In this document: positions 6,418 through 58,678 of the stretch, piece by piece
Numbering within the stretch: the stretch's first letter is position 1
Layout of the letters: the number at the start of each line of letters is the position of its first letter
Assembly (NCBI GenBank): GCA_902793005.1
Contig: CADBBQ010000004.1
Span: 9,396-73,395 of the forward strand
Origin: an uncultured Pseudomonadota bacterium
GTDB lineage: Bacteria > Pseudomonadota > Alphaproteobacteria > Rs-D84
DNA length: 64,000 nt
Reading direction: 5' to 3'
Notes under the pieces: model-generated
Databases searched by the model: none
What the model was told of the DNA's origin: nothing
What the model saw: the letters and a program-made list of their open reading frames with translations, nothing else
Position numbers and translations under genes: made by a program

Positions 6418-8673
6418 ATGAAAAAGTCTATATTCGAATCGTTAAAATTTTTCTGTGCCGCATTTTTGTGCGTGATTTTGTCTGCATTTGCAACACCAGC
6501 ACATGCGGATAATTCCTGTCGGAATCTCTTTGACCCGTCAACCGCCGAATTGGGTGATATTAGCAGTGAGACTGGGGTTATATCATCCAGTGTTCAATAC
6601 AGAATTGTGAGTGGCTTTATTCCTGTGACTCCTGGGGAAACATACACCGCCAGTGGTAAAATATATAATACGGGTGCCGGTTTGCATGATGTTATGATTA
6701 TCAGGGCATATTACGATTCAGGACAACGGTTTATTGCCGATTCCCGTACTATGTCTGATGCAACGTTTACAATTCCCAGTGGCGTGAGTTATGTTCGTGT
6801 GGAATATTGGACTGGCGAGAATGGGACCGCTGTAATTGCGCAAAGTCAGTTACAATTCGAACAAGGTTCCACCGCAACGGCGTACACGCCATACAACCCG
6901 CTGTGTGCGACGTGTGACGGTACGATTGTGAATTACACATCTGCAACGGGAACGGTGTCGCAATCCGGCACGCCAACACCAGACAATCCAATTGAACCGA
7001 CTTTTTACAAACAAGGAAATATGATTTTGCGCAAGGTTGGCGATTACGCAGATAGCTACGACGCAACCACAGGTAAGATTACTCGTCGCGTCGGTGTGAA
7101 AGTGTTGGATGGCACGGAATCGTGGTCTTATTATTCTGTACAACAAGGCAATATGTTTAGAATATCGATTGCAGGTGGTGTATTAAATGATAAAGGAGTA
7201 TTAGGAGTGCTTTGCAACTCTTACGAAGTTGTTGTGTCTGGCTCGAGGGCTAATGACACATTGAGTGGTACGACAAAAAACTATGATTTCATAAACAACA
7301 ATTACACAACATTAGAAGATTGGAAAGCCTACATTGCACAACAATATGCTGCTGGCACTCCGGTGACGGTGTGGTATCCGTTGGAAACGGAAACTACCGA
7401 AGATTGGACAGAAACGTCTTACTGTGAAACGCCAATCAAAATCGCGACAACGAAATATAATGAGTCTGCGTTTGGGCCGTTGAATACGGCGTTGGCAAAT
7501 GCGATTAGTGTTGTGGATTCGGTCGTGTCAAACACGATTACCCAGGCGGCGAGCATTGCGACTTTGCAGGCACAAAAACAAACGCGTCCAGCGAATGACA
7601 CTTGCCCGGCTTATAAACAATGTTTGTTGGTCGAGGACGAGCAAGGGGTTCCGCACTGGTACGAAATCACCGACCCGTTCCGCGATTTCGTCGCACCAAT
7701 TATTGCGAATAACGTCGCCCCCGCCAGCACCACGAACTCCGTCGGTTATACCCAATTGGAATATATCGAAAGTGATGGAAATTCTTTGATAGACACAGGA
7801 ATTGTTTTTAATGAAGGTGCTTTAAAATTTAAAGCAAACATTATGTTTAGATCTAATGGCGGCGTTGAACAAGAACTTATAGGCAATTATATTGCTGCAA
7901 ATCGTGCAAGTTTTGTTGCGGGAATATATTCCACAAATAAAGTTTTTGTGTATGGTAATGGTGGCAATGTTAATACAGAAGCTGTTTTAAATGAGTGGCA
8001 AACTTTTATTGGCGAAGGTGATTCTAGTGGCAATGTTACTATGATTTATAATAATCAAACAAAGATTGCGACGAGAAAATCTTTTTATAATGATACAAAC
8101 ATTGTGTTATTTGCTGGCGGTTCTGGAATGTTCAATCCGGCAAAATCCGCAATAAGATTAAACAAAATAGCTTTGTGGAGAAATGACACCTTGGTTCGTG
8201 ACTTTGTTCCAGTAAAACGCAACAGTGACGGTGCGATTGGGATGTATGACACCGTGACGAAAACTTTCTTTGCGAACGCAGGCACGGGTACATTTACCGC
8301 GGGACCCGTCGTTGCGAATACCGATGTTCCGGCGAACGGGATGTGGACCGCGACATGGGCGGCCGACGCAACGACAGGTGTCACCGCCGGCACTATCACC
8401 GGCGAGGGGTTGTGTAACGGGGTCACGGGAACAGAGAGCACAGCCGCGACCAGTACACAAACATCATCCGCCAATTGGTCAGTCGATGGCGCAAATTGTT
8501 GGTGCAAAACAACCGCGATTGACGACGGTGATGATACAACAATAGTGGATGGCGTGTGGGTGTTCTACTACGCGCGCAGTTCGGCCGCCGATTGTGCGCT
8601 CAACTGTGCGTACGCCTGCGCGGCCCGCGTCCGTGATAACGCGTCGTTTCGGTCAGCATTGTTCGGAGATTAA
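6418..8673 (+). CDS. Large secreted lectin/tail-fibre-like protein carrying a C-terminal DGR variable-repeat-like segment (remote DGR target candidate)
   Basis: 751 aa. Signal peptide ending PAHA. The central YTQLEYIESDGNSLIDTG jelly-roll-like region is an attribution from memory. The C-terminus WVFYYARSSAADCALNCAYACAARVRDNASFRSALFGD aligns codon for codon with the TR at 55749-55880. Confidence 0.85.
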   Translation: MKKSIFESLKFFCAAFLCVILSAFATPAHADNSCRNLFDPSTAELGDISSETGVISSSVQYRIVSGFIPVTPGETYTASGKIYNTGAGLHDVMIIRAYYDSGQRFIADSRTMSDATFTIPSGVSYVRVEYWTGENGTAVIAQSQLQFEQGSTATAYTPYNPLCATCDGTIVNYTSATGTVSQSGTPTPDNPIEPTFYKQGNMILRKVGDYADSYDATTGKITRRVGVKVLDGTESWSYYSVQQGNMFRISIAGGVLNDKGVLGVLCNSYEVVVSGSRANDTLSGTTKNYDFINNNYTTLEDWKAYIAQQYAAGTPVTVWYPLETETTEDWTETSYCETPIKIATTKYNESAFGPLNTALANAISVVDSVVSNTITQAASIATLQAQKQTRPANDTCPAYKQCLLVEDEQGVPHWYEITDPFRDFVAPIIANNVAPASTTNSVGYTQLEYIESDGNSLIDTGIVFNEGALKFKANIMFRSNGGVEQELIGNYIAANRASFVAGIYSTNKVFVYGNGGNVNTEAVLNEWQTFIGEGDSSGNVTMIYNNQTKIATRKSFYNDTNIVLFAGGSGMFNPAKSAIRLNKIALWRNDTLVRDFVPVKRNSDGAIGMYDTVTKTFFANAGTGTFTAGPVVANTDVPANGMWTATWAADATTGVTAGTITGEGLCNGVTGTESTAATSTQTSSANWSVDGANCWCKTTAIDDGDDTTIVDGVWVFYYARSSAADCALNCAYACAARVRDNASFRSALFGD
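8557..8670 (+). repeat. VR3: variable-repeat-like segment matching the TR
   Basis: Over the 78-nt core 8566-8643 there are 16 differences from the TR, all at TR adenines. The flanks diverge at non-A positions (TGGGTG vs TGGGTC; TCGTTTCGGTCAGCA vs GGCTTTCGGGCTGCG). Confidence 0.75.
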
Positions 8674-8679
8674 TGCGTG

Positions 8680-9500
8680 CCCAACCCCGGCCCGCTTACG
8701 CTGACGCTACAGCGGGGCCACCCCTTCCCACAACGGAGTGTGGTGTGTGTCTGTGCGGCGCGCCCGTGGGAAGGGAATGCAACAAATGCCAAACCCGACA
8801 AAATGCGAAAGCGTTTTGTCATCCTGAGCGAAGTCGAAAGTGAGTCACCAACTGTGACGAACGCGGATCTGGGTTTGGCAAAGATAGAGAACTGCCCCAC
8901 CACCTTCGGTGGTCCCCCCCTTCTTTTTGTGCTGGCGCACAGAAAAGACGGGGAATGTCCGGGGGAGAAATTTTACCCCCGCCACCACCTCCGGTGGTCC
9001 CCCTCCCCACGGGGGCGGAATCACCACCCGTCGCCAAAGACTATGGGTGGCAGGCCCCCCCGGTGGGCGCGGAACAGAAAAAGCCCAGGATTCAAGGTTT
9101 ATCCTCTATTCCCGTTCGGGGTGAACCTTGAATTCTGGACTTGGAATCGGGAAAGGAAAAGTTCAGGCGGGAAAAGTTCAGGCGCTGTTCGGGTTTGCAC
9201 CGAATTCAGTTCCCTAAAACACACAAACGGCTTTGGCAAATTGTTTGGAACAGCGTAAAAAAATCCCCAGATGGGGATTTTTTATTTTGGCGACGCCGTT
9301 TCACTTTGTCGCCGTGCACAACTACCTCCCCCTCGCGCGCTGACGCTTACTCGGGTACTCCTTCTTTCATAAAGAAGGAGAATGTCCGGTGGAATACCCA
9401 CCCCGTCTTTCAGGCACCCCCCGGTGGGCGGAGAATCAAATTACCCCGTCGCCTACGGCGCCACCCCTTCTTTGTGAAAGAAGGGGACGGTGCGAGAACG
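8680..9500. repeat. Intergenic cluster of palindromic repeats (A2 element 8786-8883; CCTTCTTTCATAAAGAAGG-type hairpins)
   Basis: The same elements recur at 52440-52900 and 55240-55540 in both orientations. ORFs called across this region are repeat read-through. Confidence 0.85.
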
Positions 9501-31904: not shown

Positions 31905-33020
31905 ATGGCGGATATTTCAAATACAGAATATATTACCGTAAATGCCAATGGGATTTTTGTTGGTGGCAAACCTGCAACAACATATCGTGGTGAAGAAATA
32001 AATTTGCCAGACAGCGTGCATAGAGATTTTGCCCACATCCAAACCTTAAATAAAAATGTTGCGGAATTGCATGTGTTGTCATCGGAAACACGTGGCGAAC
32101 GTGCAAAACCGGGTAATCCATCAGGAAAACAGGGTCCAAATACGTGGTGTCGGGTAAAGTTTGAAAACGGTAATTTTGGTGCGTGGGTCTTCTACAACGA
32201 GTACGCTTCGGCCGCCTTTTGTGCGTGCTACTGTGCGGTCGACTGCGCGTACGACGTCCGTAATAGCGCGTCGTTTCGGTCTGTAGTTTTGGGTGAGACA
32301 ATTGATAAAAGTAAAGCAAAACAAAACGTATTAACAAATGCGTTGAAAGATACAAATTTGTCGCAATGTGTGCCAGATATTCCAAATACAGCATATATTA
32401 CCATAAAATACTATTGGTATTATTTTTATGTTAATCATGATGACCGTTGTTGGGTTATTGGCGCTTTTGTTGGTGGGCATCATGTAGAAAAATATCATGG
32501 TCAGACAATATATGAGTATAACGCTGACGTACGAGATTATAACGCTGAAGCACGAGATGCATACACACGCCTGTTTAATAATAGTGAGTATAATTTTAGC
32601 GATATATATCCGCGCATTGCCAGTGGTTCTATTACAGAAGTTCATGTTGGTGCATTTGAAACGCGTGGCGAATATGCAAAGCCAGGCAATCCGGATGGTG
32701 TGTTTGGTCCAAATGCATGGTGTCGTGTGAAATATAAAAATGGAGATTTAGGTCCGTGGGTCTTTGTTAACGACTGTGGTTCGGCCGCCAATTGTGCGAG
32801 AAGGTGTGTGTTTCTCTGCGCGAGCAGTATCAGAGAATCTGCATCGTTTCGGGCCGCGTTGTGTGGGCCAATTGAAAAATCGAATGCGAATCTTGCTATG
32901 ACACAAAACGCATTAACAAATGTGTTAAAAGATACAGATTTGTCTAAATTTGTTGGCACGCATAAAATCGGTGCTTATGAAATTGTTGTCCGTAAATCTG
33001 GGCAGAATACAAGGGGGTAA
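31905..33020 (+). CDS. Two-module DGR target-family protein (tandem fusion, each module ending in a VR-like segment)
   Basis: 371 aa. Module 1 is MADISNTEYITV...WCRVKFENGNFGAWVF...FRSVVLGE. Module 2 is PDIPNTAYITI...WCRVKYKNGDLGPWVF...FRAALCGP. Ends with the shared C-terminal module. Confidence 0.8.
   Translation: MADISNTEYITVNANGIFVGGKPATTYRGEEINLPDSVHRDFAHIQTLNKNVAELHVLSSETRGERAKPGNPSGKQGPNTWCRVKFENGNFGAWVFYNEYASAAFCACYCAVDCAYDVRNSASFRSVVLGETIDKSKAKQNVLTNALKDTNLSQCVPDIPNTAYITIKYYWYYFYVNHDDRCWVIGAFVGGHHVEKYHGQTIYEYNADVRDYNAEARDAYTRLFNNSEYNFSDIYPRIASGSITEVHVGAFETRGEYAKPGNPDGVFGPNAWCRVKYKNGDLGPWVFVNDCGSAANCARRCVFLCASSIRESASFRAALCGPIEKSNANLAMTQNALTNVLKDTDLSKFVGTHKIGAYEIVVRKSGQNTRG
32184..32297 (+). 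repeat. VR4: VR-like segment, near A-only relationship to the TR
   Basis: 15 substitutions at TR adenines and 2 at non-A positions within the core (ACG to GAG, AGT to GCT). Its 3' flank GCGTCGTTTCGGTC is shared with VR3, not with the TR. Confidence 0.7.
32757..32867 (+). repeat. VR5: decayed VR-like segment
   Basis: Aligns to the TR through the invariant islands TGGGTCTT, TCGGCCGCCAATTGTGCG, TGCGCG and TTTCGGG, but has many non-adenine mismatches. Confidence 0.6.
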
Positions 33021-49762: not shown

Positions 49763-51061
49763 ATGATAAAGAAAGAAAAAGTCAAAGATTTACATTATTC
49801 TGTAAATGGCATTATCACGGCCGATGAAATCCAAGCGGCGGCGGATGAAATTTTATCAGAATATGGGAAAACTGCGAAAATGCCTGGATTTCGTGCGGGT
49901 CATATTCCACTTTCTGTATTGCGCCAGAAATTTAACGCAAATGCGACGGCGGATGCGATTGACAAATTGATGAATCGTGATTTGAACGCATTTACGGCGG
50001 AAAAAAACATTCGCTTGGCGGCGGCACCACGTGCCGATTTGCCGAAATGGGAAATGGGCAAAGACGCCGAATACACATTGGAATTTGATATTTTGCCGGA
50101 ATTGCCGGAAATTGATTTGGGAAAAATTACCGTCACAAAACCGGTTGCCGAATTAGATGAGGCCGAGGTTGACAAAGCCGTTGAAAACATTCGTCGTTCG
50201 CGCAGCACCGCCGAAAAGCAAGATGATAAATATGCGGCGCAAAATGGCGATACTGCGGTTATTGATTTCACCGGATTTATTGGCGATGACGCATTCGAAG
50301 GTGGCGCGGCAACCAAACATCATTTGGTTTTGGGTTCGGGGTCTTTTATTCCGGGATTCGAAGACCAAATTATCGGGCATAAATCTGGCGATAAATTTGA
50401 TGTCAATGTTAAATTCCCATCCGATTATCACGCGGAAAATCTGGCGGGTAAAAATGCGCGTTTTGCAACCGTCTTGCACGAGGTTCGCAAACACATTTTG
50501 CCAGAATTAAACGATGAATTGGCGAAAACGGTTGGATTTGACACGGTTGAAAAATTGCGTGCGCATATCAAAGACATTTTGAACGAACAATATGCGGATG
50601 CGTCGCAACGCGCGATGCGCAATGAATTGTTGGACGTGTTGGCGGATAAAGTCAAAATGGATTTGCCATCTGCGTTGGTTGAACAAGAATTGGCAATGGC
50701 GAAACAAGAACACGAACATCATAATGCCGAACACGGTCACGACCACAAATGGGACGACAAGGCCGAAAAGAAAGAGGCCGAACGTCGTGTTAAATTGGGC
50801 CTGATTTTGGCAGAGTGGGGCAATAAAAACAAAGTTGCCGTCACCCGTGATGATTTGCAACAGGCTATCTGGGCCGAGGCATCGCGTTATCCGGATCCGA
50901 AACAGATTTTTGAATTTTATAACAAAAATCAAAATGCGGTTGCGATGTTGCGCGGAATGCTGTTTGAACGCAAGGCTTTGGATGAAATGTTGAAAAATGT
51001 TAAAACCAAAGATAAAAAGGTTCCGGCCACGGAATTGTTTAAACAAGCCGATGTGAAATAA
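49763..51061 (+). CDS. tig: Trigger factor
   Basis: Start moved to MIKKEKVKDLHY (GGAAAT RBS region). GFRAGHIP signature and a central FKBP-type segment (GDTAVIDFTGFIGDDAFEGG). Confidence 0.93.
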   Translation: MIKKEKVKDLHYSVNGIITADEIQAAADEILSEYGKTAKMPGFRAGHIPLSVLRQKFNANATADAIDKLMNRDLNAFTAEKNIRLAAAPRADLPKWEMGKDAEYTLEFDILPELPEIDLGKITVTKPVAELDEAEVDKAVENIRRSRSTAEKQDDKYAAQNGDTAVIDFTGFIGDDAFEGGAATKHHLVLGSGSFIPGFEDQIIGHKSGDKFDVNVKFPSDYHAENLAGKNARFATVLHEVRKHILPELNDELAKTVGFDTVEKLRAHIKDILNEQYADASQRAMRNELLDVLADKVKMDLPSALVEQELAMAKQEHEHHNAEHGHDHKWDDKAEKKEAERRVKLGLILAEWGNKNKVAVTRDDLQQAIWAEASRYPDPKQIFEFYNKNQNAVAMLRGMLFERKALDEMLKNVKTKDKKVPATELFKQADVK

Positions 51062-51089
51062 AAAAATCCCCCAATCGGGGGATTTTTTT
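51062..51089 (+). terminator. Rho-independent terminator after tig
   Basis: ATCCCCC-AAT-CGGGGGAT followed by a T-run. Confidence 0.8.
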
Positions 51090-51859
51090 CCCGTCCCCGC
51101 ACAGCGGAGCGGCTAGAAAAGACGGGGGTGGGGAACATATTCATAAATGGAATAAATTCAATTTTTTTACTTGCTTTTGTTGGGTAAATTTTTCTATCAT
51201 AGGTTTGAATTCAACGGGGATTGAATTCGGGCCTTAGAAAGCCAGTAAAGTCCGGTGCAAAATTTGTTGCATCGTTATCTTTCCCATGCGTGTCGCGCGA
51301 CCACGTACAAAAATACTAGACGGATAAACTTGCTTTGTACGAAAAACGAATCGCATATACGACACAGGAATATTTCCCGTAACTTCCATAAAAGAAAAAT
51401 AACTTATTCAGATTTTGCACTGACATGTATATCATATTTGGTGGCATATCACGGTTGTGTATATGCATCCACGCCAGATGTTTTGTGCATGTGGAATCCC
51501 GGCATTTGTGTGTTGTATATTTTTTACACAGATGCGTGTACATTTTTATTAAAGCAAAAGATTGTAACCCTGGCGTTGGTGTTCATGGGCCTATCCCGTG
51601 ATAGACAAATTTGATTTTGTTTGGCGGGGTGCCGCTGGACCGCAAGGCAGTGGGATCAATGACTTTATGATTTTCTAACACCCCGACCGTGTTTTTGGGA
51701 ATATTTTCCTGAGACTTTCTTGGTCGACTTCCATAAAAAAATTTTTTTAACGGTAATTTTGATGTGTGCAAATGCGCGGCGCGTTTTTGTGCGTATTCCG
51801 CCCGCGCGGGCGCGCGGTGCGCGGTGCGTAGCACCGTCCCCGTGCGGTGGTTCGGACGA

Positions 51860-52975
51860 AGTCCGTCCCCTTCTTTATGAAAGAAGGGGTGGCATCCGAA
51901 GGATGACGGGGTAATTGTGCCGGGCGATGTAGTGAAACGAAATCGCCATAAAAAGGTTTTAAATCACAATTACCTCCCCCTACGCCGATAAATCGGCTTC
52001 GGGTACTCCTTCTTTCATAAAGAAGGAGACGGCGCATAAATGCGCCGGGGAAAAAGAGGAAAACATAGAGTTCAAAATTCAAGGTTTTGGTCCCATTCCC
52101 GTTCGGGGCTGGAACCTTGGACGTTGAACTTTGGGATAAACAAAGTTAGGTCGTGTGTCCCCCCGGGATGCCCCGAAATCCAACTCCCATTGAAAATAAT
52201 GGCTGTTCCCGGGGAGTGTGACAAAAACACGGTAGTGTTTTTGTCAAAGCAAATAACAAAGTACAAAGTACAAAGTACAAAGTACAAAGTACAAAGTACA
52301 AAGTGCAAAGTACAAATGATGCCGTGTGGCAACGCCACACACATATGGATATTCTCCTTCTTTATGAAAGAAGGAGTACCCGAGTAAGCGTCAGCGCGCG
52401 AGGGGGAGGTAGTTGTGAAAAGGTCTAAACTGCTGGTGTGGTTGTGATTATAGAGAAAAATATTATCACAACTACCCCACCGTCTTCGACGGTCCCCCCC
52501 TTCTTTCATAAAGAAGGGGAATGTCCGAGAGAAGATGGCGGTCCCCCCTTCTTTGGGAAAGAAGGGAATATCCGAGAGGGGCGGAATGTTTGCCAAACCG
52601 ACAAAACGCGTTTGCGTCTTGTCATCCTGAGCGAAGTCGAAAGTGAGTCACCAACGGTGACGAACGTGGATCTGGGTTTGGCAAAGACAAGGAACTGCCC
52701 CGTCACTCAACCGCGTTGCGGTTTCGTGCCACCCCTTCTTTTTACCCTGCGGGTAGAAAAGACGGGGAATGTCCGAGAGGGTGGCGCGGTGGCGCCGGGC
52801 ATCAAATATGCCTGGATCCGCGCTCGCGGAACGCTCGCTTTCGACTGCGTTCGATTACTTATGTGGGGTTGCCACAACGTAATCTCACTACGCTCAGGAT
52901 GACAAAAAATGTTGCAACATTTTTTGTCTGAATAAAAAAAAGAGAGAGAAACAAAATAAAAAAAAAGGATAGGAA
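51860..52975. repeat. Dense array of palindromic repeats and (CAAAGTA)n upstream of the DGR target gene
   Basis: Contains CCTTCTTT(C/A)(A/T)(T/G)AAAGAAGG hairpins (about 51868, 52006, 52353, 52497, 52545), heptamer run 52255-52316, A2 element 52600-52688 and A1 element (reverse orientation) 52797-52930. Confidence 0.85.
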
Positions 52976-52977
52976 AG

Positions 52978-55011
52978 ATGAAAAAGGTAAGTTTATTTAC
53001 GATTTTATTGTTATCTGGGGTGGGGGCATCGCCGGCGATGGCGGCGTTGACGTCCGCGGATGACATCCTGTCTGAATTGATGATTTATGGTGCGGTGTAT
53101 GGTGATACGGTTGCGGGCGGCCTGGGCGTGTCATATCGTTATCACGGTGATGACGTCGCGACCGAATATTTACAACATACCGACGGCACGGTGTATCACA
53201 AATCATACACATCGGGCCTGGGCACCGCCGGGGACAAGGGCGATTGGCAAAATCATTGGGAAACATATTTCCCACGTCGTGCTTTGTCCGACGGTACGCA
53301 ATTATCCGACGGCGTGACCGTGCACGGAATCTCGCAATGCACGCGCATAGGGGGCACTTTCGCCGTCCCAAATTACGATATGACCGACCCATATACCACC
53401 GTGACCGAGGATGGCGAACGCCAGTGTTGGTGCAAATTAACGCATGTACGCGAGGGCACGAGCGCCCCTGCAAACCTGGATGCGTTGGGTTATTCGGTTG
53501 GGGCCTCGTCTTGGGTCTTCCACAACACGTCCGGTTCGGCCGCCAATTGTGCGTACTACTGTGCGAACGGCTGCGCGAGCGCCGTCCGTCCTAACGCGGG
53601 CTTTCGGGCTGCGGTTTTTGGTGGGGGCGCCTTGGGGCATGCGACCCCGGCGGATATGTGTGGGCAAAATTTAGCGAACGGAAAATTATATGATTACCAG
53701 GTCCCGCGTGTGGCAAAACTGGCCGCCGGGACATATACCGCATCCATTGCCGCCGCGGACGGCGGCAAATGGATGTTGCGGTTACGCGGCGTCGCAGACA
53801 ATACCGCCGTCACGGGCGAAGCCCTGACGGCGGCGCTGGCGTCGAGTGGTTTGGCACTCGACGACAGCGAAATTTCGAATCGCGACGGGTGGGTTTTTGG
53901 CAATGCGGCCGACGCCAATGCTTTGACTTTTACAATTAGGTCCGGCGAATACATCGTCGAAATCGCGAAACAGGACGCCACCGGCGCACAGGATTTAATG
54001 CTGGAACACGGGGATGTGGCGAATGCCTATGTCGCGCCAACGCCGTGTATCCGCATCGCCGGGACGAAAATCGCGGCCGCGGCGTTCGAACGCGCCGATG
54101 CGGTGCGCGCGCGGTTGGTTAATGTCGTTGACCACGTCGTCAGCCAAACTATTACCCAGGCCGGCCACATCGCCACATTACAAACGCAAAAACAAACCCG
54201 CCCGGCCGACGACCCGACGGACGCAAATAACGCCGAAAATTGCCCCGAGGGGAAAAAATGCTTGCTGGTGACGGACGAAAACAAAACGCCGCACTGGTAC
54301 GAAATTTTTGACCCGATACACGAGTGGTATGATGCGTGGGTTACCGCCGGTAAACCCGCCGTCAAAGTGGAAATGGACGGCAGTAACTATTCATTTTATA
54401 ACGCGTTCTATCGCGGGGACAAAACGTGGCGCAAAACATATATCGACGGAACGACATCAACATATGACCGTCCGTTTGACCACGCGACGCGCTGCACAAA
54501 CCCCAGTTATAACACCGAAACGCAAAAAGCTCGTCCGTGCTATTCCGAGGTTGGAATGTTTAAAACACTGGGCGATGGCGAATGGGCCGAGGTTTATACG
54601 TCTGGCGACGGCACGAATTCACCGGTTGGTGTGGTGTATGGCATATCCAAGTGCACATCGGTCGCGGGACCAACAAATTACACCGGTGGTGGAACGCTAC
54701 TGTCGCAATTGTCCGCCGCGGACCAGGCAAAGTGGGCGGAATTGCCGGCTTTGCACGGTCAACCAGAACGCGAAGGATACGACAGCGAGAGTTTCAAACA
54801 ATGCTGGTGCAAGGTGGATGGCGTTGGTGTCCCGGGTGCGGATGGAAACCCTGCAAACGGAAGTATCTATCCGGTTGGGGCCTCGTCTTGGGTCTTCGGC
54901 CGCACGGGCGGTTCGGCCGCCATTTGTGCGAGCTACTGTGCGCGCGACTGCGCGTCCAACGTCCGTGTTTACGCGGGCTTTCGGGCTGCGGTTTTTGGTG
55001 GGCTGGAATGA
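52978..55011 (+). CDS. Secreted DGR variable protein with two lectin-like VR-bearing modules
   Basis: 677 aa. Signal peptide ...SPAMA. Module ends are ...CWCKLTHV...VGASSWVFHNTSGSAANCAYYCANGCASAVRPNAGFRAAVFGG (internal) and ...CWCKVDGV...VGASSWVFGRTGGSAAICASYCARDCASNVRVYAGFRAAVFGGLE (C-terminal). Confidence 0.92.
   Translation: MKKVSLFTILLLSGVGASPAMAALTSADDILSELMIYGAVYGDTVAGGLGVSYRYHGDDVATEYLQHTDGTVYHKSYTSGLGTAGDKGDWQNHWETYFPRRALSDGTQLSDGVTVHGISQCTRIGGTFAVPNYDMTDPYTTVTEDGERQCWCKLTHVREGTSAPANLDALGYSVGASSWVFHNTSGSAANCAYYCANGCASAVRPNAGFRAAVFGGGALGHATPADMCGQNLANGKLYDYQVPRVAKLAAGTYTASIAAADGGKWMLRLRGVADNTAVTGEALTAALASSGLALDDSEISNRDGWVFGNAADANALTFTIRSGEYIVEIAKQDATGAQDLMLEHGDVANAYVAPTPCIRIAGTKIAAAAFERADAVRARLVNVVDHVVSQTITQAGHIATLQTQKQTRPADDPTDANNAENCPEGKKCLLVTDENKTPHWYEIFDPIHEWYDAWVTAGKPAVKVEMDGSNYSFYNAFYRGDKTWRKTYIDGTTSTYDRPFDHATRCTNPSYNTETQKARPCYSEVGMFKTLGDGEWAEVYTSGDGTNSPVGVVYGISKCTSVAGPTNYTGGGTLLSQLSAADQAKWAELPALHGQPEREGYDSESFKQCWCKVDGVGVPGADGNPANGSIYPVGASSWVFGRTGGSAAICASYCARDCASNVRVYAGFRAAVFGGLE
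53495..53625 (+). repeat. VR1 (internal variable repeat)
   Basis: 131 nt collinear with the TR. 13 substitutions, all at TR adenines. No other mismatch. Confidence 0.92.
54872..55004 (+). repeat. VR2 (C-terminal variable repeat)
   Basis: 133 nt collinear with the TR. 18 substitutions, all at TR adenines. No other mismatch. Ends 7 nt before the stop codon. Confidence 0.93.
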
Positions 55012-55021
55012 TAAACCTTTT

Positions 55022-55054
55022 CGCATCAAAAACCCTGTGCGGGTTTTTGATGCG
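55022..55054 (+). other. 14-bp-stem hairpin 18 nt downstream of VR2
   Basis: CGCATCAAAAACCC-TGTGC-GGGTTTTTGATGCG, a perfect inverted repeat. Confidence 0.8.
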
Positions 55055-55059
55055 GGTGG

Positions 55060-55745
55060 ACGACCCAACCCTGGTTGCACCAATGGTGCAACCACCCCTT
55101 CCCTGGCCAGGGAAGGGGGAACTGAGGCGTAAATGGGGTCCCACGGAATTGGGAAATTCCGTGGGCGAAAATGGGGGGTGCGGGGGCGACTCCCCCGCCG
55201 CGCGCAGCGCGGATTTGCCAAACCGGACAAAAGCCAATGGCTTTTGTCATCCTGAGCGAAGTCGAAAGTGAGTCACCAACGGTGACGAACGCGGATCTGG
55301 GTTTGGCAAGGGCAAATTTGTTGGCGCGGCGGCGCCGGGCATCAAATATGCCTGGATCCACGCTCGCGAAACGCTCGCTTTCGACTGCGTTCGATTACTT
55401 ATGGGGCGGTGCCTCAACGTAATCTCACTACGCTCAGGATGACAAAAACGCGGATGCGTTTTTGTTAACAAATTACCCCGTCATCCTTCGGATGCCACCC
55501 CTTCTTTGGGAAAGAAGGGGACGGTGCGAGAGCCGGATGCACGATTTTTCAGACTAAAACACGGTAGTGTTTTTGTTAAAGTACAAAGTACAAAGTACAA
55601 AGTACAAATAATGCCGTGTGGCAACGCCACACACATATGGGACATTAATTGAACTTTGAACTTTGAAAACTGAACTCTGAAAAATGGTGTATCACTGGTA
55701 AAACCCGTGGTTCAGGTGTCAGTTGCTGGGTCGGATTCGGCGTGT
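55060..55745. repeat. Palindromic repeat and heptamer array between the target gene and the TR
   Basis: A2 element 55225-55312, A1 element (reverse) 55337-55466, CCTTCTTTGGGAAAGAAGG hairpin about 55496, (CAAAGTA)n 55578-55608, (AACTTTG)n 55646-55680. Confidence 0.85.
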
Positions 55746-55748
55746 TGG

Positions 55749-55880
55749 CGGTTGGGGCCTCGTCTTGGGTCTTCAACAACACGAACAGTTCGGCCGCCAA
55801 TTGTGCGAACAACTGTGCGAACAACTGCGCGAACAACGTCCGTAATAACGCGGGCTTTCGGGCTGCGGTTTTTGGTGGGC
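55749..55880 (+). repeat. DGR template repeat (TR)
   Basis: CGGTTGGGGCCTCGTCTTGGGTCTTC AAC AAC ACG AAC AGT TCGGCCGCC AAT TGTGCG AAC AAC TGTGCG AAC AAC TGCGCG AAC AAC GTCCGT AAT AAC GCGGGCTTTCGGGCTGCGGTTTTTGGTGGGC. The 26 adenines are confined to 14 codons. All invariant blocks are adenine-free. Confidence 0.92.
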
Positions 55881-55884
55881 TCCT

Positions 55885-56700
55885 GGGAATCGGTGTTATG
55901 ACTTTATCCCAGATAAAGTTTGGCCAACCTGTGGGGACAAAGGATGCAACAAAGTACAAAGTACAAAGTACAAATAATGTTGAACTTTGGATGAAATCCT
56001 TTTCAGATGATGCCGACAAAAAACACGGTAGTGTTTTTGTCAAAGTACAAAGTACAAATAACAAAGTACAAAGTACAAAGTACAAAGTACAAATAATGTT
56101 GAACTTTGAACTTTGGATTGGTGGATTCTGTTTCGAATTGTGCCGATTTATCAAGGCGGAGTGATATTACCGCATTGCAAACAAAAACGCGTTCGCGTTT
56201 TTATCAAAGTACAAAGTACAAATAACAAAGTACAAATAGTGTGTCGGCATAGCCGACGGCAACAATTGAACTTTGAACTTTGAACTTTGAAAACTGATAT
56301 GTTTGCTTTGAAATAAATACACAGGGGGGTGTTGGGTCAGTAATTCTGTTCTGTATCGTGGTGACCACCCGACGCCCCAAAGGGCTATGGGTGGCAGGCC
56401 TCCCTTCGCCCCAATAGGGCTATGGGTGGCAGGCCTCCCTTCGCCCCAAATACAAAAACGCGGACGCGTTTTTGTCATTGCGAGCGAACGAGTTCAATTT
56501 GCGTGCAACGCAAAGCCGAACGAGTGAGACGTGGCAATCCAGTCAATAATAAAGTCCAGCCTGCGGCTGGTGCTTTAATAGACCTGGATCCCCACGTGTC
56601 GCAAAACTGCGAATGCACGACATCGCAGGTTTTGCTCCCTCGGGATGACACAACGTTGAAAACGTTGTGTCTGAAATTTGAATTAACAATGGAGAGATAA
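55885..56700. repeat. Heptamer runs and palindromic or tandem repeats between the TR and the accessory ORF
   Basis: (CAAAGTA)n at 55958-55985, 56040-56093 and 56205-56235. (AACTTTG)n at 56096-56112 and 56266-56295. A roughly 35-bp unit CCCCAA(A/T)AGGGCTATGGGTGGCAGGCCTCCCTTCG occurs twice at about 56377-56447. Confidence 0.8.
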
Positions 56701-56704
56701 AAAA

Positions 56705-57031
56705 ATGACTATTGAAGAAATTGCCCAGGTGCGGGCGGTGGATTGTCCGGCGTTTTCTGTGTTCGCCAAGGACAAATTGCCTTTGCCGGGTGTTAAAAAA
56801 CGCTTGGATGAAATTTTAAATAAAGAAATCTTGGTCGTCGATTTCCGAATTACAAAATCAAAAAAACGCGAGGGGTCCGAGTGCCTGCAAATCCAATTCG
56901 TGTGCGATGATGTTATCTGTGTTGCATTTACTGGGTCGTCAGTTTTGGCGACCCAAATTCAATCTGTACGGGAAAAAATTCCTTTTCGAACGTGCGTTAC
57001 AAAAATCGATAAATATTATTCTTTTTCGTGA
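56705..57031 (+). CDS. DGR accessory protein candidate (in the Avd position; not recognisably Avd by eye)
   Basis: 108-aa ORF ending 24 nt before the RT ATG. GGAGAG RBS-like sequence upstream. Confidence 0.65.
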   Translation: MTIEEIAQVRAVDCPAFSVFAKDKLPLPGVKKRLDEILNKEILVVDFRITKSKKREGSECLQIQFVCDDVICVAFTGSSVLATQIQSVREKIPFRTCVTKIDKYYSFS

Positions 57032-57055
57032 TTTTTTCGTTGGTGGTTGCTGAAT

Positions 57056-58081
57056 ATGAAAACCTATAATAATTTATGGGATGAATTTATATCGCCCGAA
57101 AATTTCCAGTTGGCTGCGCGCAAGGCAATTAAAAGCAAAAAATCTAAATCCGCCGTCGCAAAATTTATGGCGAATAAAGATGCGTTGCTGGATAAACTGC
57201 GCCGGGATATTATGTCGGGCGTGTTCCGCACGTCCCCATATGTCGTCAAAACAATTTTCGAACCAAAACAGCGTCAAATTTATGTCTTGCCGTTGTATCC
57301 TGACCATATTTTGCACCACGCGCTGGTTAATGTGCTGGGGCCGATTTGGTTGAAAATGTTCGTCGCCGATTCGTTCGCGTGTATCCCGGGACGCGGCCTG
57401 CATTCGGCATCTACGCGCGCAATGGAATTGGTGCGGCGAAATAAATATGTGCTGCAATGTGATATCAGAAAATTTTACCCCAGTATTCGGCACGATGTGA
57501 TGAAACGAATTCTGCGCCGGAAAATTTCAGACAGGCGGATTCTGCGTTTGCTTGATTGCGTCGTCGATTCTGTCGAGGGGGATAAAAATGTCCCGATTGG
57601 AAATTTAACCAGTCAATGGTTCGGTAATGTGTTCTTGAACGAGTTAGACCATTTCGTCAAAGAAAAACTGCAATGGCGCGAATATATCCGGTATTGCGAT
57701 GATTTTTGCTTGTTCGGAAATGACAAGGCGGCGTTGCGCGCGGCGTTGGCCCAAATCCAAGATTTCGTCCATCAGGAATTGCAATTGGAATTTTCCAAGT
57801 CTGTGATTTATCCCGTTTGGCGCGGATTCGATTTTATCGGGTATCGACATTTCCGCGGATTTATCTTGTTGCGGAAAACAACCGCACGACGCATCAAGAA
57901 AAATGTCATAAATATGGCACGATACCACGATTTCGGCGAACACAGTGTAGGGCAATTGGCCGCATATCACGGTTGGGCCAAGTGGGCAAATACATATCGG
58001 TTTAAACGAAAAATTCAACGCGCGGTGGGTCATTACGGGGGCGATGCCGCAAAATTCTTGCGTAAAAATTTCTGGTTTTAA
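57056..58081 (+). CDS. DGR-type reverse transcriptase
   Basis: RT motifs 1-7: KPKQRQIYVLP, (I)PGRGLHSA, QCDIRKFYPSI, the DGR-diagnostic motif 4 PIGNLTSQWFGNVFLNELDHF, catalytic RYCDDFCLF and FIGYRH. Start taken at the ATG (MKTYNNLW). Confidence 0.93.
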   Translation: MKTYNNLWDEFISPENFQLAARKAIKSKKSKSAVAKFMANKDALLDKLRRDIMSGVFRTSPYVVKTIFEPKQRQIYVLPLYPDHILHHALVNVLGPIWLKMFVADSFACIPGRGLHSASTRAMELVRRNKYVLQCDIRKFYPSIRHDVMKRILRRKISDRRILRLLDCVVDSVEGDKNVPIGNLTSQWFGNVFLNELDHFVKEKLQWREYIRYCDDFCLFGNDKAALRAALAQIQDFVHQELQLEFSKSVIYPVWRGFDFIGYRHFRGFILLRKTTARRIKKNVINMARYHDFGEHSVGQLAAYHGWAKWANTYRFKRKIQRAVGHYGGDAAKFLRKNFWF

Positions 58082-58107
58082 AAAAAATCGCATATGCGAT
58101 TTTTTTT
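58082..58107. terminator. Bidirectional terminator between the RT and the LOG gene
   Basis: A-run, ATCGCATATGCGAT palindrome, T-run. Confidence 0.75.
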
Positions 58108-58678
58108 AGTTTTCGAGTTTAGTTGTGGAATAATTTAATATTTTTTTTATTAATTCGTCAGGGGTGCGTGCGCCGTGGATGTTATATTCGTGCACGTTTT
58201 CAATAAAACCACAGTTCTGCATATGTATAAACAGGCGCGAAAACGGATGCCAAAAATCCGATGTGTTCAGGAAAAATAACGGCTTTTGCGTTTCACCAAT
58301 TTGCTGCATCGTCATAATGTCTGTTAATTCGTTCAATGTTCCCAGGCCCCCCGGTAATATAATAAACGCGTCGGATTCTTGGAACATTTCCGTCTTGCGT
58401 GCGTTGATGGATTCCGTCATACGTAATTCTATGCCGGTGTGCGCCGGTTCTTGGCGGGCAATAATGTGCGATGTCGTCACGCCCAAGACCGCACCACCGT
58501 TGTCCAATGCCGCGTTGCATACCGTTCCCATTAATCCAACATCGCCACCACCAAATATTAATTTTATCCCGTTTTTTGCCAATAATTCCCCAACCCTTGC
58601 CGCATCACGTGCAAATTTCGGGTCGTTGCCAAATTCGTGCCCACAATATACCGCAATCGATTTTATGATTTTCTTCAT
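58106..58678 (-). CDS. LOG-family (TIGR00730) nucleotide phosphoribohydrolase
   Basis: 190 aa. GGG..GLMG and PGGLGTLNEL (PGGxGTxxE) motifs. Confidence 0.85.
   Translation of the reverse strand: MKKIIKSIAVYCGHEFGNDPKFARDAARVGELLAKNGIKLIFGGGDVGLMGTVCNAALDNGGAVLGVTTSHIIARQEPAHTGIELRMTESINARKTEMFQESDAFIILPGGLGTLNELTDIMTMQQIGETQKPLFFLNTSDFWHPFSRLFIHMQNCGFIENVHEYNIHGARTPDELIKKILNYSTTKLEN

Follow-up and report, generated by a model that had tools for sequence, protein, structure and literature searches.

A chromosomal diversity-generating retroelement that very probably diversifies two sites of one gene in an uncultured rumen alphaproteobacterium

The locus and its repeats

This study focused on a 64,000-nt stretch of DNA (hereafter, the window; forward strand of contig CADBBQ010000004.1) from an uncultured member of the Alphaproteobacteria, and within it on a diversity-generating retroelement (DGR) consisting of a target gene with two variable repeats (VRs), a template repeat (TR), a small open reading frame (ORF) and a reverse transcriptase (RT) gene. 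Related loci and proteins are cited by their L and P numbers. In map order, the features are:

52978-55011, + strand: DGR target gene, one uninterrupted ORF of 677 aa carrying two VRs
52978-53043, + strand: probable Sec signal peptide (MKKVSLFTILLLSGVGASPAMA, AxA cleavage site), read from the translation
53278-53631, + strand: N-terminal six-cysteine module, residues ~101-218, from homology to the C-terminal module and the module alignment
53495-53625, + strand: VR1, the internal variable repeat; 13 of 13 mismatches to the TR lie at TR adenines
54574-55008, + strand: C-terminal six-cysteine module, residues ~533-677, from homology and an AlphaFold2 module model
54872-55004, + strand: VR2, the C-terminal variable repeat; 18 of 18 mismatches to the TR lie at TR adenines
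55022-55054, no strand assigned: 14-bp inverted repeat (hairpin or cruciform), 18 nt after VR2 and 11 nt after the stop codon
55749-55881, + strand: TR, with 26 adenines in 131-133 nt, encoding ...WVFNNTNSSAANCANNCANNCANNVRNNAGFRAAVFGG; from the repeat search and ungapped comparison
56705-57031, + strand: conserved 108-aa ORF directly upstream of the RT, a candidate accessory factor
57047-58081, + strand: DGR reverse transcriptase (RVT_1, 9e-12; phrog_1423, 5e-102)

A repeat search returned three in-register copies of ~131 nt (53495-53625, 54872-55002 and 55749-55879), the last of which is the only copy in the window to keep all 22 core adenines. An earlier inspection of the letters (the sequence-only reading) had claimed that both VRs match the TR perfectly outside its adenine positions, and this was borne out, the differences being confined to template adenines with hypergeometric probabilities of P = 3.6e-11 for VR1 and 2.0e-16 for VR2. 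The final ~50 nt are identical among the TR, VR1 and VR2. Within the TR-derived repeat, the 12 AAC/AAT codons are arranged as pairs at every fourth residue, and at 10 of the 14 adenine-containing codons VR1 and VR2 share no amino acid, as had been noted previously. One uninterrupted ORF thus holds two VRs, each matching the same TR. The RT starts 1,166 nt 3' of the TR end on the same strand, is 33% identical to BPP-1 Brt over its full length (E = 1e-53), and carries both YCDD and the DGR-diagnostic motif IGNLTSQ (57596-57616, RT residues 184-190), so that an RT of the DGR clade with the [I/L/V]GxxxSQ motif adjoins the TR.

At the protein level, VR1 occupies residues 173-216, leaving 461 residues C-terminal of it (the ~460 of the sequence-only reading), while VR2 occupies residues 632-676 of 677. 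Each VR ends a module with six cysteines (C121, C150, C152, C191, C195 and C199 in the N-terminal module; C559, C609, C611, C650, C654 and C658 in the C-terminal one). The two modules are homologous, as had been proposed (43% identity, E = 2e-20), and their similarity survives removal of the TR-encoded part (28% identity, E = 2e-4), from which it follows that entire domains were duplicated and not the repeat alone. The ~415 residues separating the VR modules are conserved and free of stop codons, and at least 12 full-length homologues share the two-VR architecture (42-88% identity); every one of them comes from Alphaproteobacteria of the rumen or gut. Single-module relatives (P0012-P0021) share just the C-terminal half of the target. 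A Sec signal peptide is probable at the N-terminus of the 677-aa protein, as judged from the translation.

Turnover of the two variable repeats

Two loci from other samples, L030 and L031, carry a variant of the target gene (P0276, in the same 90%-identity protein cluster) that matches the window at every one of the ~1,770 nt outside the VRs, and L030 is 99.93% identical to the window across 3 kb upstream. Against this background, VR1 of the L030 variant differs from that of the window at 15 positions, all of them at TR adenines, and VR2 at another 15, of which 14 are at TR adenines and one is a T>C change at 54924. Taken together, 29 of the 30 VR differences fall on TR adenines in an identical gene background, which is comparative evidence of mutagenic retrohoming. 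The sequence-only reading had named variation of VR2 alone as the outcome that would make VR1 a frozen copy; in this variant each VR has 15 nt differences and the rest of the gene has none.

Variants differing in a VR only were found in four further clusters. P0014 and P0295 differ in VR1 alone (9 of 44 positions, against 0 of 578 in the rest), whereas P0014 differs from P0294 and P0296 in VR2 alone, as do P0005 from P0283 and P0009 from P0291; P0008 differs from P0285, P0287 and P0289 in both VRs. The occurrence of VR1-only and VR2-only variants on identical backgrounds shows that the sites diversify independently, as the sequence-only reading had supposed, and the comparisons show that both VRs have turned over recently. 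Among near-identical variant pairs there were four VR2-only changes and one VR1-only change; a higher activity of VR2 was considered and set aside, these counts being too few for a difference in rate.

More distant comparisons point the same way. Between L004 and L028, 17.6% of VR1 positions (Fisher P = 2.6e-11) and 22% of VR2 positions (P = 4e-16) differ, as against 2.6% of the 1,700 nt outside the VRs, and eight of the non-adenine differences are identical in both VRs. Likewise, the TR, VR1 and VR2 of the window share the non-adenine allele GGGGCCTCGTCTTGGG, where the TR, VR1 and VR2 of L001 share GGGTCCTCTGCGTGGG. Since such alleles are strain-specific and common to all three repeats, both VRs must have been overwritten from the TR of their own strain after the strains diverged. 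The cassettes of L001/L002, L003, L005 and L007 each have their own TR, and in each both VRs differ from it at adenines only, with the exception of two non-adenine changes in VR1 of L005.

The TR itself shows an unusual degree of conservation. Its core (55766-55842, 77 nt) is 100% identical in L003, L005 and L019 and has one change each in L007 and L012, while the RT proteins of cassettes sharing this core are only ~71-80% identical. This is far above the expectation from synonymous freedom, and suggests either that the template RNA is constrained at the nucleotide level or that TRs were exchanged recently.

It is very probable, then, that this is a chromosomal DGR of an uncultured rumen alphaproteobacterium that diversifies two acceptor sites of one gene. 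In outline, the TR transcript (55749-55881) would be copied to cDNA by the RT, with misincorporation opposite template adenines, the RT probably working with the adjacent 108-aa protein in place of Avd. The cDNA would then replace one of two homologous acceptors of 131-133 nt, either VR1 within the coding sequence or VR2 at its 3' end. A single event would rewrite a single site, and because of this VR1 and VR2 would drift independently. The product, a protein with a probable signal peptide, would present two surfaces that vary independently, and most likely acts as a bivalent or dual-specificity binder on or outside the cell envelope; the two-headed binding protein of the sequence-only reading is a reasonable inference.

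Several points weigh against this interpretation. The description of the VRs as active is based on assembled consensus sequences that were compared between samples. Avd was not found, PF05635 being absent from the cassette ORFs and a tblastn search of the window with the Avd-like protein of L007 returning no match, and the role assigned to the 108-aa ORF, a candidate only, is guilt by association. No distinction of the IMH/IMH* type (initiation of mutagenic homing) could be identified, nor any 3' motif common to VR1 and VR2, absent from the TR and consistent across lineages. Finally, the region 3' of VR1 in the window gave z = +0.2, with no significant hairpin or cruciform.

This last point contrasts with the situation at VR2. 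Efficient homing in BPP-1 requires a 24-bp inverted repeat that lies immediately 3' of the VR (PMC3240598). The hairpin after VR2 (55022-55054) has a DNA folding energy of -16.8 kcal/mol (z = -6.5, with 0 of 200 shuffles as stable). It was also considered as a transcription terminator and rejected, having no T-run and not being called as one, and promoter and terminator counts were not above those of shuffles. At VR1, where significance was scored against dinucleotide shuffles, the corresponding region gave z = -6.9 in L007 and z = -1.2 in L027. Inverted repeats are visible there in several lineages, at the same codon positions in the linker (…GALG-xxxxx-MCG…), but only that of L007 passes the shuffles, and a conserved coding-sequence hairpin was accordingly rejected. 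As far as the comparisons reach, the internal site of the window appears to turn over without a demonstrable hairpin of the BPP-1 type, and, as the sequence-only reading had pointed out, this retrohoming site lies in coding sequence, far from a stop codon or terminator.

A looser, adenine-masked search of the window revealed two further TR-like repeats that exact-flank searches had missed:

8557-8643, + strand: VR3, TR-like core (87 nt) at the C-terminus of a 751-aa ORF (6418-8673)
32184-32270, + strand: VR4, TR-like core, internal in a 371-aa ORF (31905-33020)

VR3 has 13 adenine-site mismatches and one non-adenine mismatch, and both of its flanks have diverged. The gene is a paralogue that shares the central KQTRPA…HWYEI region with the two-VR target, and its sole cluster variant differs at residue 171, outside the repeat. 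The mismatches of VR4 are also adenine-biased, with two non-adenine changes, and its ORF holds two copies of the Cys-rich module, the second at ~32760-32860. A cluster variant has nine differences, none in either module, and the distant homologue P0035 retains essentially the same 'variable' residues. The 3' ends of VR3 and VR4 carry an 'ASFRS' allele, the TR here encoding 'AGFRAA'. Given this different 3' allele, the diverged flanks and the lack of VR changes among variants, neither was accepted as an active target; VR3 is probably a frozen former or remote target, and VR4 looks like a frozen former target.

These repeats show what a frozen VR looks like, and VR1 is unlike them, so they provide an internal control for the alternative that VR1 is itself a relic, a duplicated module that no longer accepts retrohoming and has left VR2 as the only diversified site. 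The missing hairpin 3' of VR1 in the window lineage, the excess of VR2-only changes and the two non-adenine mismatches in L005 could all be cited for such a state. Set against this, all of the many VR1 differences between L030 and the window lie at TR adenines with none in the gene outside the VRs, P0295 and P0014 differ in VR1 alone, and non-adenine changes of TR alleles are mirrored in VR1, whereas the frozen repeats have diverged flanks, non-adenine changes and no variation. Chimeric assembly of VR1 and VR2 in L030/L031 and P0295 is also unlikely, as the new VR1 sequences are identical to neither of the other two repeats. A frozen VR1 is therefore very unlikely. Ordinary homologous gene conversion, without reverse transcription, might be thought to maintain the likeness of three direct repeats that lie within 2.4 kb and have identical flanking blocks of 25-30 nt. 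It would leave unexplained why differences are confined to the adenine positions of one copy (31 of 31 in the window, 29 of 30 between strains) and why the TR retains all of its adenines in every lineage, and a bona fide DGR RT adjoins the TR; we consider it extremely unlikely. It is hardly credible that faulty assembly or annotation created the 677-aa ORF by joining two single-VR genes. Although repeats can cause mis-assembly and single-module relatives exist, the full-length two-module frame was seen again in at least 12 homologues and in over 25 variants, from independent samples and assemblers and from three chromosomal contexts, and the 415 inter-VR residues are conserved and stop-free.

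The cysteine-rich module and its fold

The sequence-only reading had expected the VRs to reside in C-type-lectin (CLec) or FGE-like folds, and this expectation found no support. Pfam gave no match to the full protein at E <= 0.1 and none to either module at E <= 10, and NCBIfam (including Fib_succ_major) and PHROG had no match for the target. FGE-sulfatase, DUF1566 and Mtd were not detected in the window modules at E <= 10, nor in 96 family members at E <= 0.01, and neither module belonged to a C-type-lectin sequence profile. A profile built from 15 module sequences retrieved nothing from PDB sequences at E <= 10, hhalign of the module with Mtd gave a probability of 0.2%, and Foldseek of the module model against PDB and BFVD gave nothing at E < 0.6.

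The module nevertheless belongs to a sizeable family. When compared with 1.84 billion cluster representatives, its profile recovered 707 proteins at E <= 1e-3, many of them holding 2-7 copies of the module, and Listeria-Bacteroides (Flg_new) repeats were present in 36 of the 96 members scanned. The layout is …CxC…WVF…Cx3Cx3C…VR…FRAAVFG, with the VR forming the C-terminal ~44 residues, six cysteines per module, and two invariant elements, the CxC (CWCK) strand motif and the Cx3Cx3C inside the VR. The combination of CxC and Cx3C is a classic cystine-stabilised α/β arrangement.

In the model of the C-terminal module, five β-strands are followed by two helices that hold the VR, which is thus predicted to be helical. 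The variability of the VR itself has the same signature. Across 60 distinct sequences, positional entropy has a period of ~4, with a Fourier peak at 90-95°, a strong signal at 100° and a negligible one at 160-180°, and on a helical wheel conserved and variable positions lie ~180° apart. There is, then, moderate evidence that the VR is a helix backed by Cys and Ala, the opposite face of which is rewritten by the DGR. The models themselves count against placing much weight on this, as that of the full-length protein is poor (predicted local distance difference test, pLDDT, 58) and that of the C-terminal module modest (pLDDT 71; predicted template modelling score 0.60). A fold for the full-length protein was also sought, and the weak Foldseek matches of its central region to β-sandwich or carbohydrate-binding-module-like structures (E >= 0.018) were not usable.

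It is quite possible, if short of probable, that the scaffold is an unannotated six-cysteine α/β module (~700 cluster representatives, often in multiple copies in large surface proteins) in which the CxC strand would be stapled by disulfides to the Cx3Cx3C helix and the DGR would rewrite one helix face. Together with an Avd-less cassette dependent on a new 108-aa accessory protein, this would add a third class of structure to the natural variable proteins of DGRs, and the window's protein would be a bivalent 'helix-display' binder. The competing view is that the modules are highly divergent, miniaturised domains of the C-type-lectin or FGE type, and that helices are predicted only because the alignment is shallow. 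The VR spacing 'SW … ~28 residues … GFR', which we take to be typical of FGE-type DGR VRs, would fit this, and the model confidence of the VR, at just ~67-72, is too modest to count against a divergent CLec fold. Moreover, the published CLec2 and CLec3 VRs escaped motif searches until threading was applied (PMC5758913). The uniformly negative profile and structure searches described above speak against a lectin, as do the period of ~4 in VR variability, with variable and conserved residues on opposite helical faces, and the cysteine pattern (CxC and Cx3Cx3C) that is invariant across the family. A divergent lectin is plausible but somewhat doubtful. If it is true that the scaffold is a cystine-stapled helix display and not a C-type lectin, it would widen the known structural solutions for massive protein variation.

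One other part of the target gene deserves mention. L001 and the window are ~98-99% identical in the genes on either side of the target but only 91% identical over the target gene as a whole, and in the part encoding residues ~43-108 (53104-53301), just ahead of the N-terminal module, they have diverged beyond blastn alignment. The gene thus has here a second variable segment, mosaic or hypervariable in nature and unconnected with the DGR.

Known systems, the cassette and its surroundings

The best-studied point of comparison is the DGR of phage BPP-1 (mtd-avd-TR-brt). Both systems show adenine-specific transfer from TR to VR, both have a homologous RT with the same [I/L/V]GxxxSQ motif and a TR upstream of it on the same strand, and in both a GC-containing inverted repeat follows the C-terminal VR, that of the window matching the position of the BPP-1 target element (PMC3240598). 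They differ in that the window gene has two acceptor sites, of which the internal one lies 1.4 kb away from the stop codon, that an unrelated 108-aa ORF stands in place of Avd, that the VR module shows no relation to the C-type-lectin domain of Mtd, and that the window cassette is chromosomal, amid housekeeping genes.

The sequence-only reading overstated the novelty of an internal VR, since both internal VRs and three-VR targets, 'all subject to mutagenesis', have been published (PMC5758913, PMC3521204, PMC10907252, PMC6642488, PMC11661182). Marichromatium purpuratum 984 has three VRs in one ORF of 3,366 bp with tandem FGE domains (Schillinger et al. 2012, PMC3521204), and in DGR4/5 of Thiohalocapsa PB-PSB1 a vWA domain is joined to three tandem CLec VR domains that are unequally diversified in metagenomes (Doré et al. 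2024, PMC10907252). Internal VRs occur in Ig1, Ig2 and one CLec2 target, where the IMH is then constrained by coding (Wu et al. 2018, PMC5758913); 31 DGRs with several VRs per ORF were reported by Yan et al. (2019, PMC6642488), and a 2024 survey of metagenome-assembled genomes (MAGs) described seven targets with 2-3 VRs (PMC11661182). As in Marichromatium and Thiohalocapsa, one TR in the window serves several VRs of one ORF, the upstream VR is internal, and all VRs are apparently subject to mutagenesis, theirs being unequally diversified (PMC3521204, PMC5758913, PMC10907252). Their repeats, however, are tandem C-terminal FGE-sulfatase or CLec domains on cytoplasmic conflict-system sensors (MoxR/vWA), whereas the window protein has no such tandem domains; its two modules, located towards the N-terminus and at the C-terminus, are kept apart by ~415 residues of other domains and are preceded by a signal peptide.

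With the Ig1 and Ig2 targets the window shares an internal VR whose 3' recognition sequence doubles as coding sequence (PMC5758913). Those targets have a single VR and a predicted immunoglobulin fold and are mostly phage-associated, while the window gene has two VRs and a Cys-rich module. Like LdtA of Legionella and TvpA of Treponema, the system is a cellular DGR with an exported protein presumed to bind ligands. In LdtA and TvpA the only VR is C-terminal, the CLec domains are of the DUF1566 or FGE type, and the proteins are anchored as lipoproteins. Some of this is described in PMC5758913 as well. Neither the CLec domains (DUF1566 or FGE) nor lipoprotein anchoring were detected in the window protein. 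The two-VR arrangement is therefore rare but not new. What sets the present case apart is the combination of non-adjacent modules, a signal peptide, an unannotated non-CLec family and an Avd-less cassette with a conserved 108-aa ORF, along with comparative evidence for independent turnover at each site that is unusually clean.

VRs are thought to be C-terminal because homing signals would otherwise need to be encoded within protein-coding sequence (PMC8144416, PMC5758913), a rule that Roux et al. (2021, PMC8144416) attribute to cis elements that have to be intergenic. The window offers a natural test of this rule, as one TR serves an internal and a C-terminal site of the same gene. With each site turning over alone, and the internal one without a detectable hairpin, it would be a clean natural system in which to define the minimal acceptor requirements, and these bear on engineered DGRs meant to diversify the interior of any chosen gene. 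For the small-genome Alphaproteobacteria of the rumen, an exported protein with two surfaces that vary independently would also suggest recognition that is bivalent or of dual specificity.

The 108-aa ORF is ~80% identical in L003, L005, L007 and L019, 100% identical in L001, and split in L012. Its family comprises ~100 homologue clusters, nearly all of ~108 aa, of which the few that are named are hypothetical proteins of Alphaproteobacteria or Rickettsiales MAGs. It has a calculated isoelectric point of 8.6, no match in Pfam, NCBIfam or PHROG, and no similarity to BPP-1 Avd (Bbp7). L007 alone has an additional Avd-like ORF (PF05635, at L007:9180-9578). The Avd accessory protein is present in ~74% of DGRs, and is hence not universal. 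Avd-less DGR lineages are already known (PMC5758913).

The RTs of the related cassettes (L001/L002, L003, L005 and L007) are ~79-99% identical to that of the window, and the related loci come from rumen MAGs that bear the label Alphaproteobacteria. Housekeeping genes surround the cassette of the window, with rplM, rpsI and tig upstream and tilS-like and ftsH genes downstream. The unit of target, TR, 108-aa ORF and RT was found in three chromosomal settings: between tig and tilS-ftsH in L001, L004 and L030; between secretin-TcpQ and plsY-dprA-dnaA in L003 and L005; and in a tyrosine integrase/RNase J neighbourhood in L007. One cassette in three neighbourhoods implies that it moves as a unit.

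An Rfam scan of 51000-58200 gave nothing above the gathering score. The heptamer AAAGTAC, together with CAAATAA variants and next to small GC hairpins, forms arrays at 52236-52335, 55556-55634, 55936-56126 and 56184-56262; these are clustered on both sides of the target gene and in the interval from the TR to the 108-aa ORF, and similar arrays are present in L001 and L007. A repeat of ~112 nt has exactly three copies in the 64 kb (8792-8903, 52595-52706 and 55220-55331; 76-88% identity), its core CATCCTGAGCGAAGTCGAAAGTGAGTCACC… recurring within one mismatch. All three copies adjoin DGR targets, one being 3' of the VR3 gene and the others 5' and 3' of the two-VR gene. A second repeat, of 127 nt (94%), flanks the two-VR gene on both sides (52782-52908 and 55322-55448). 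Both repeats could be elements resembling miniature inverted-repeat transposable elements, or remnants of target-gene duplication.

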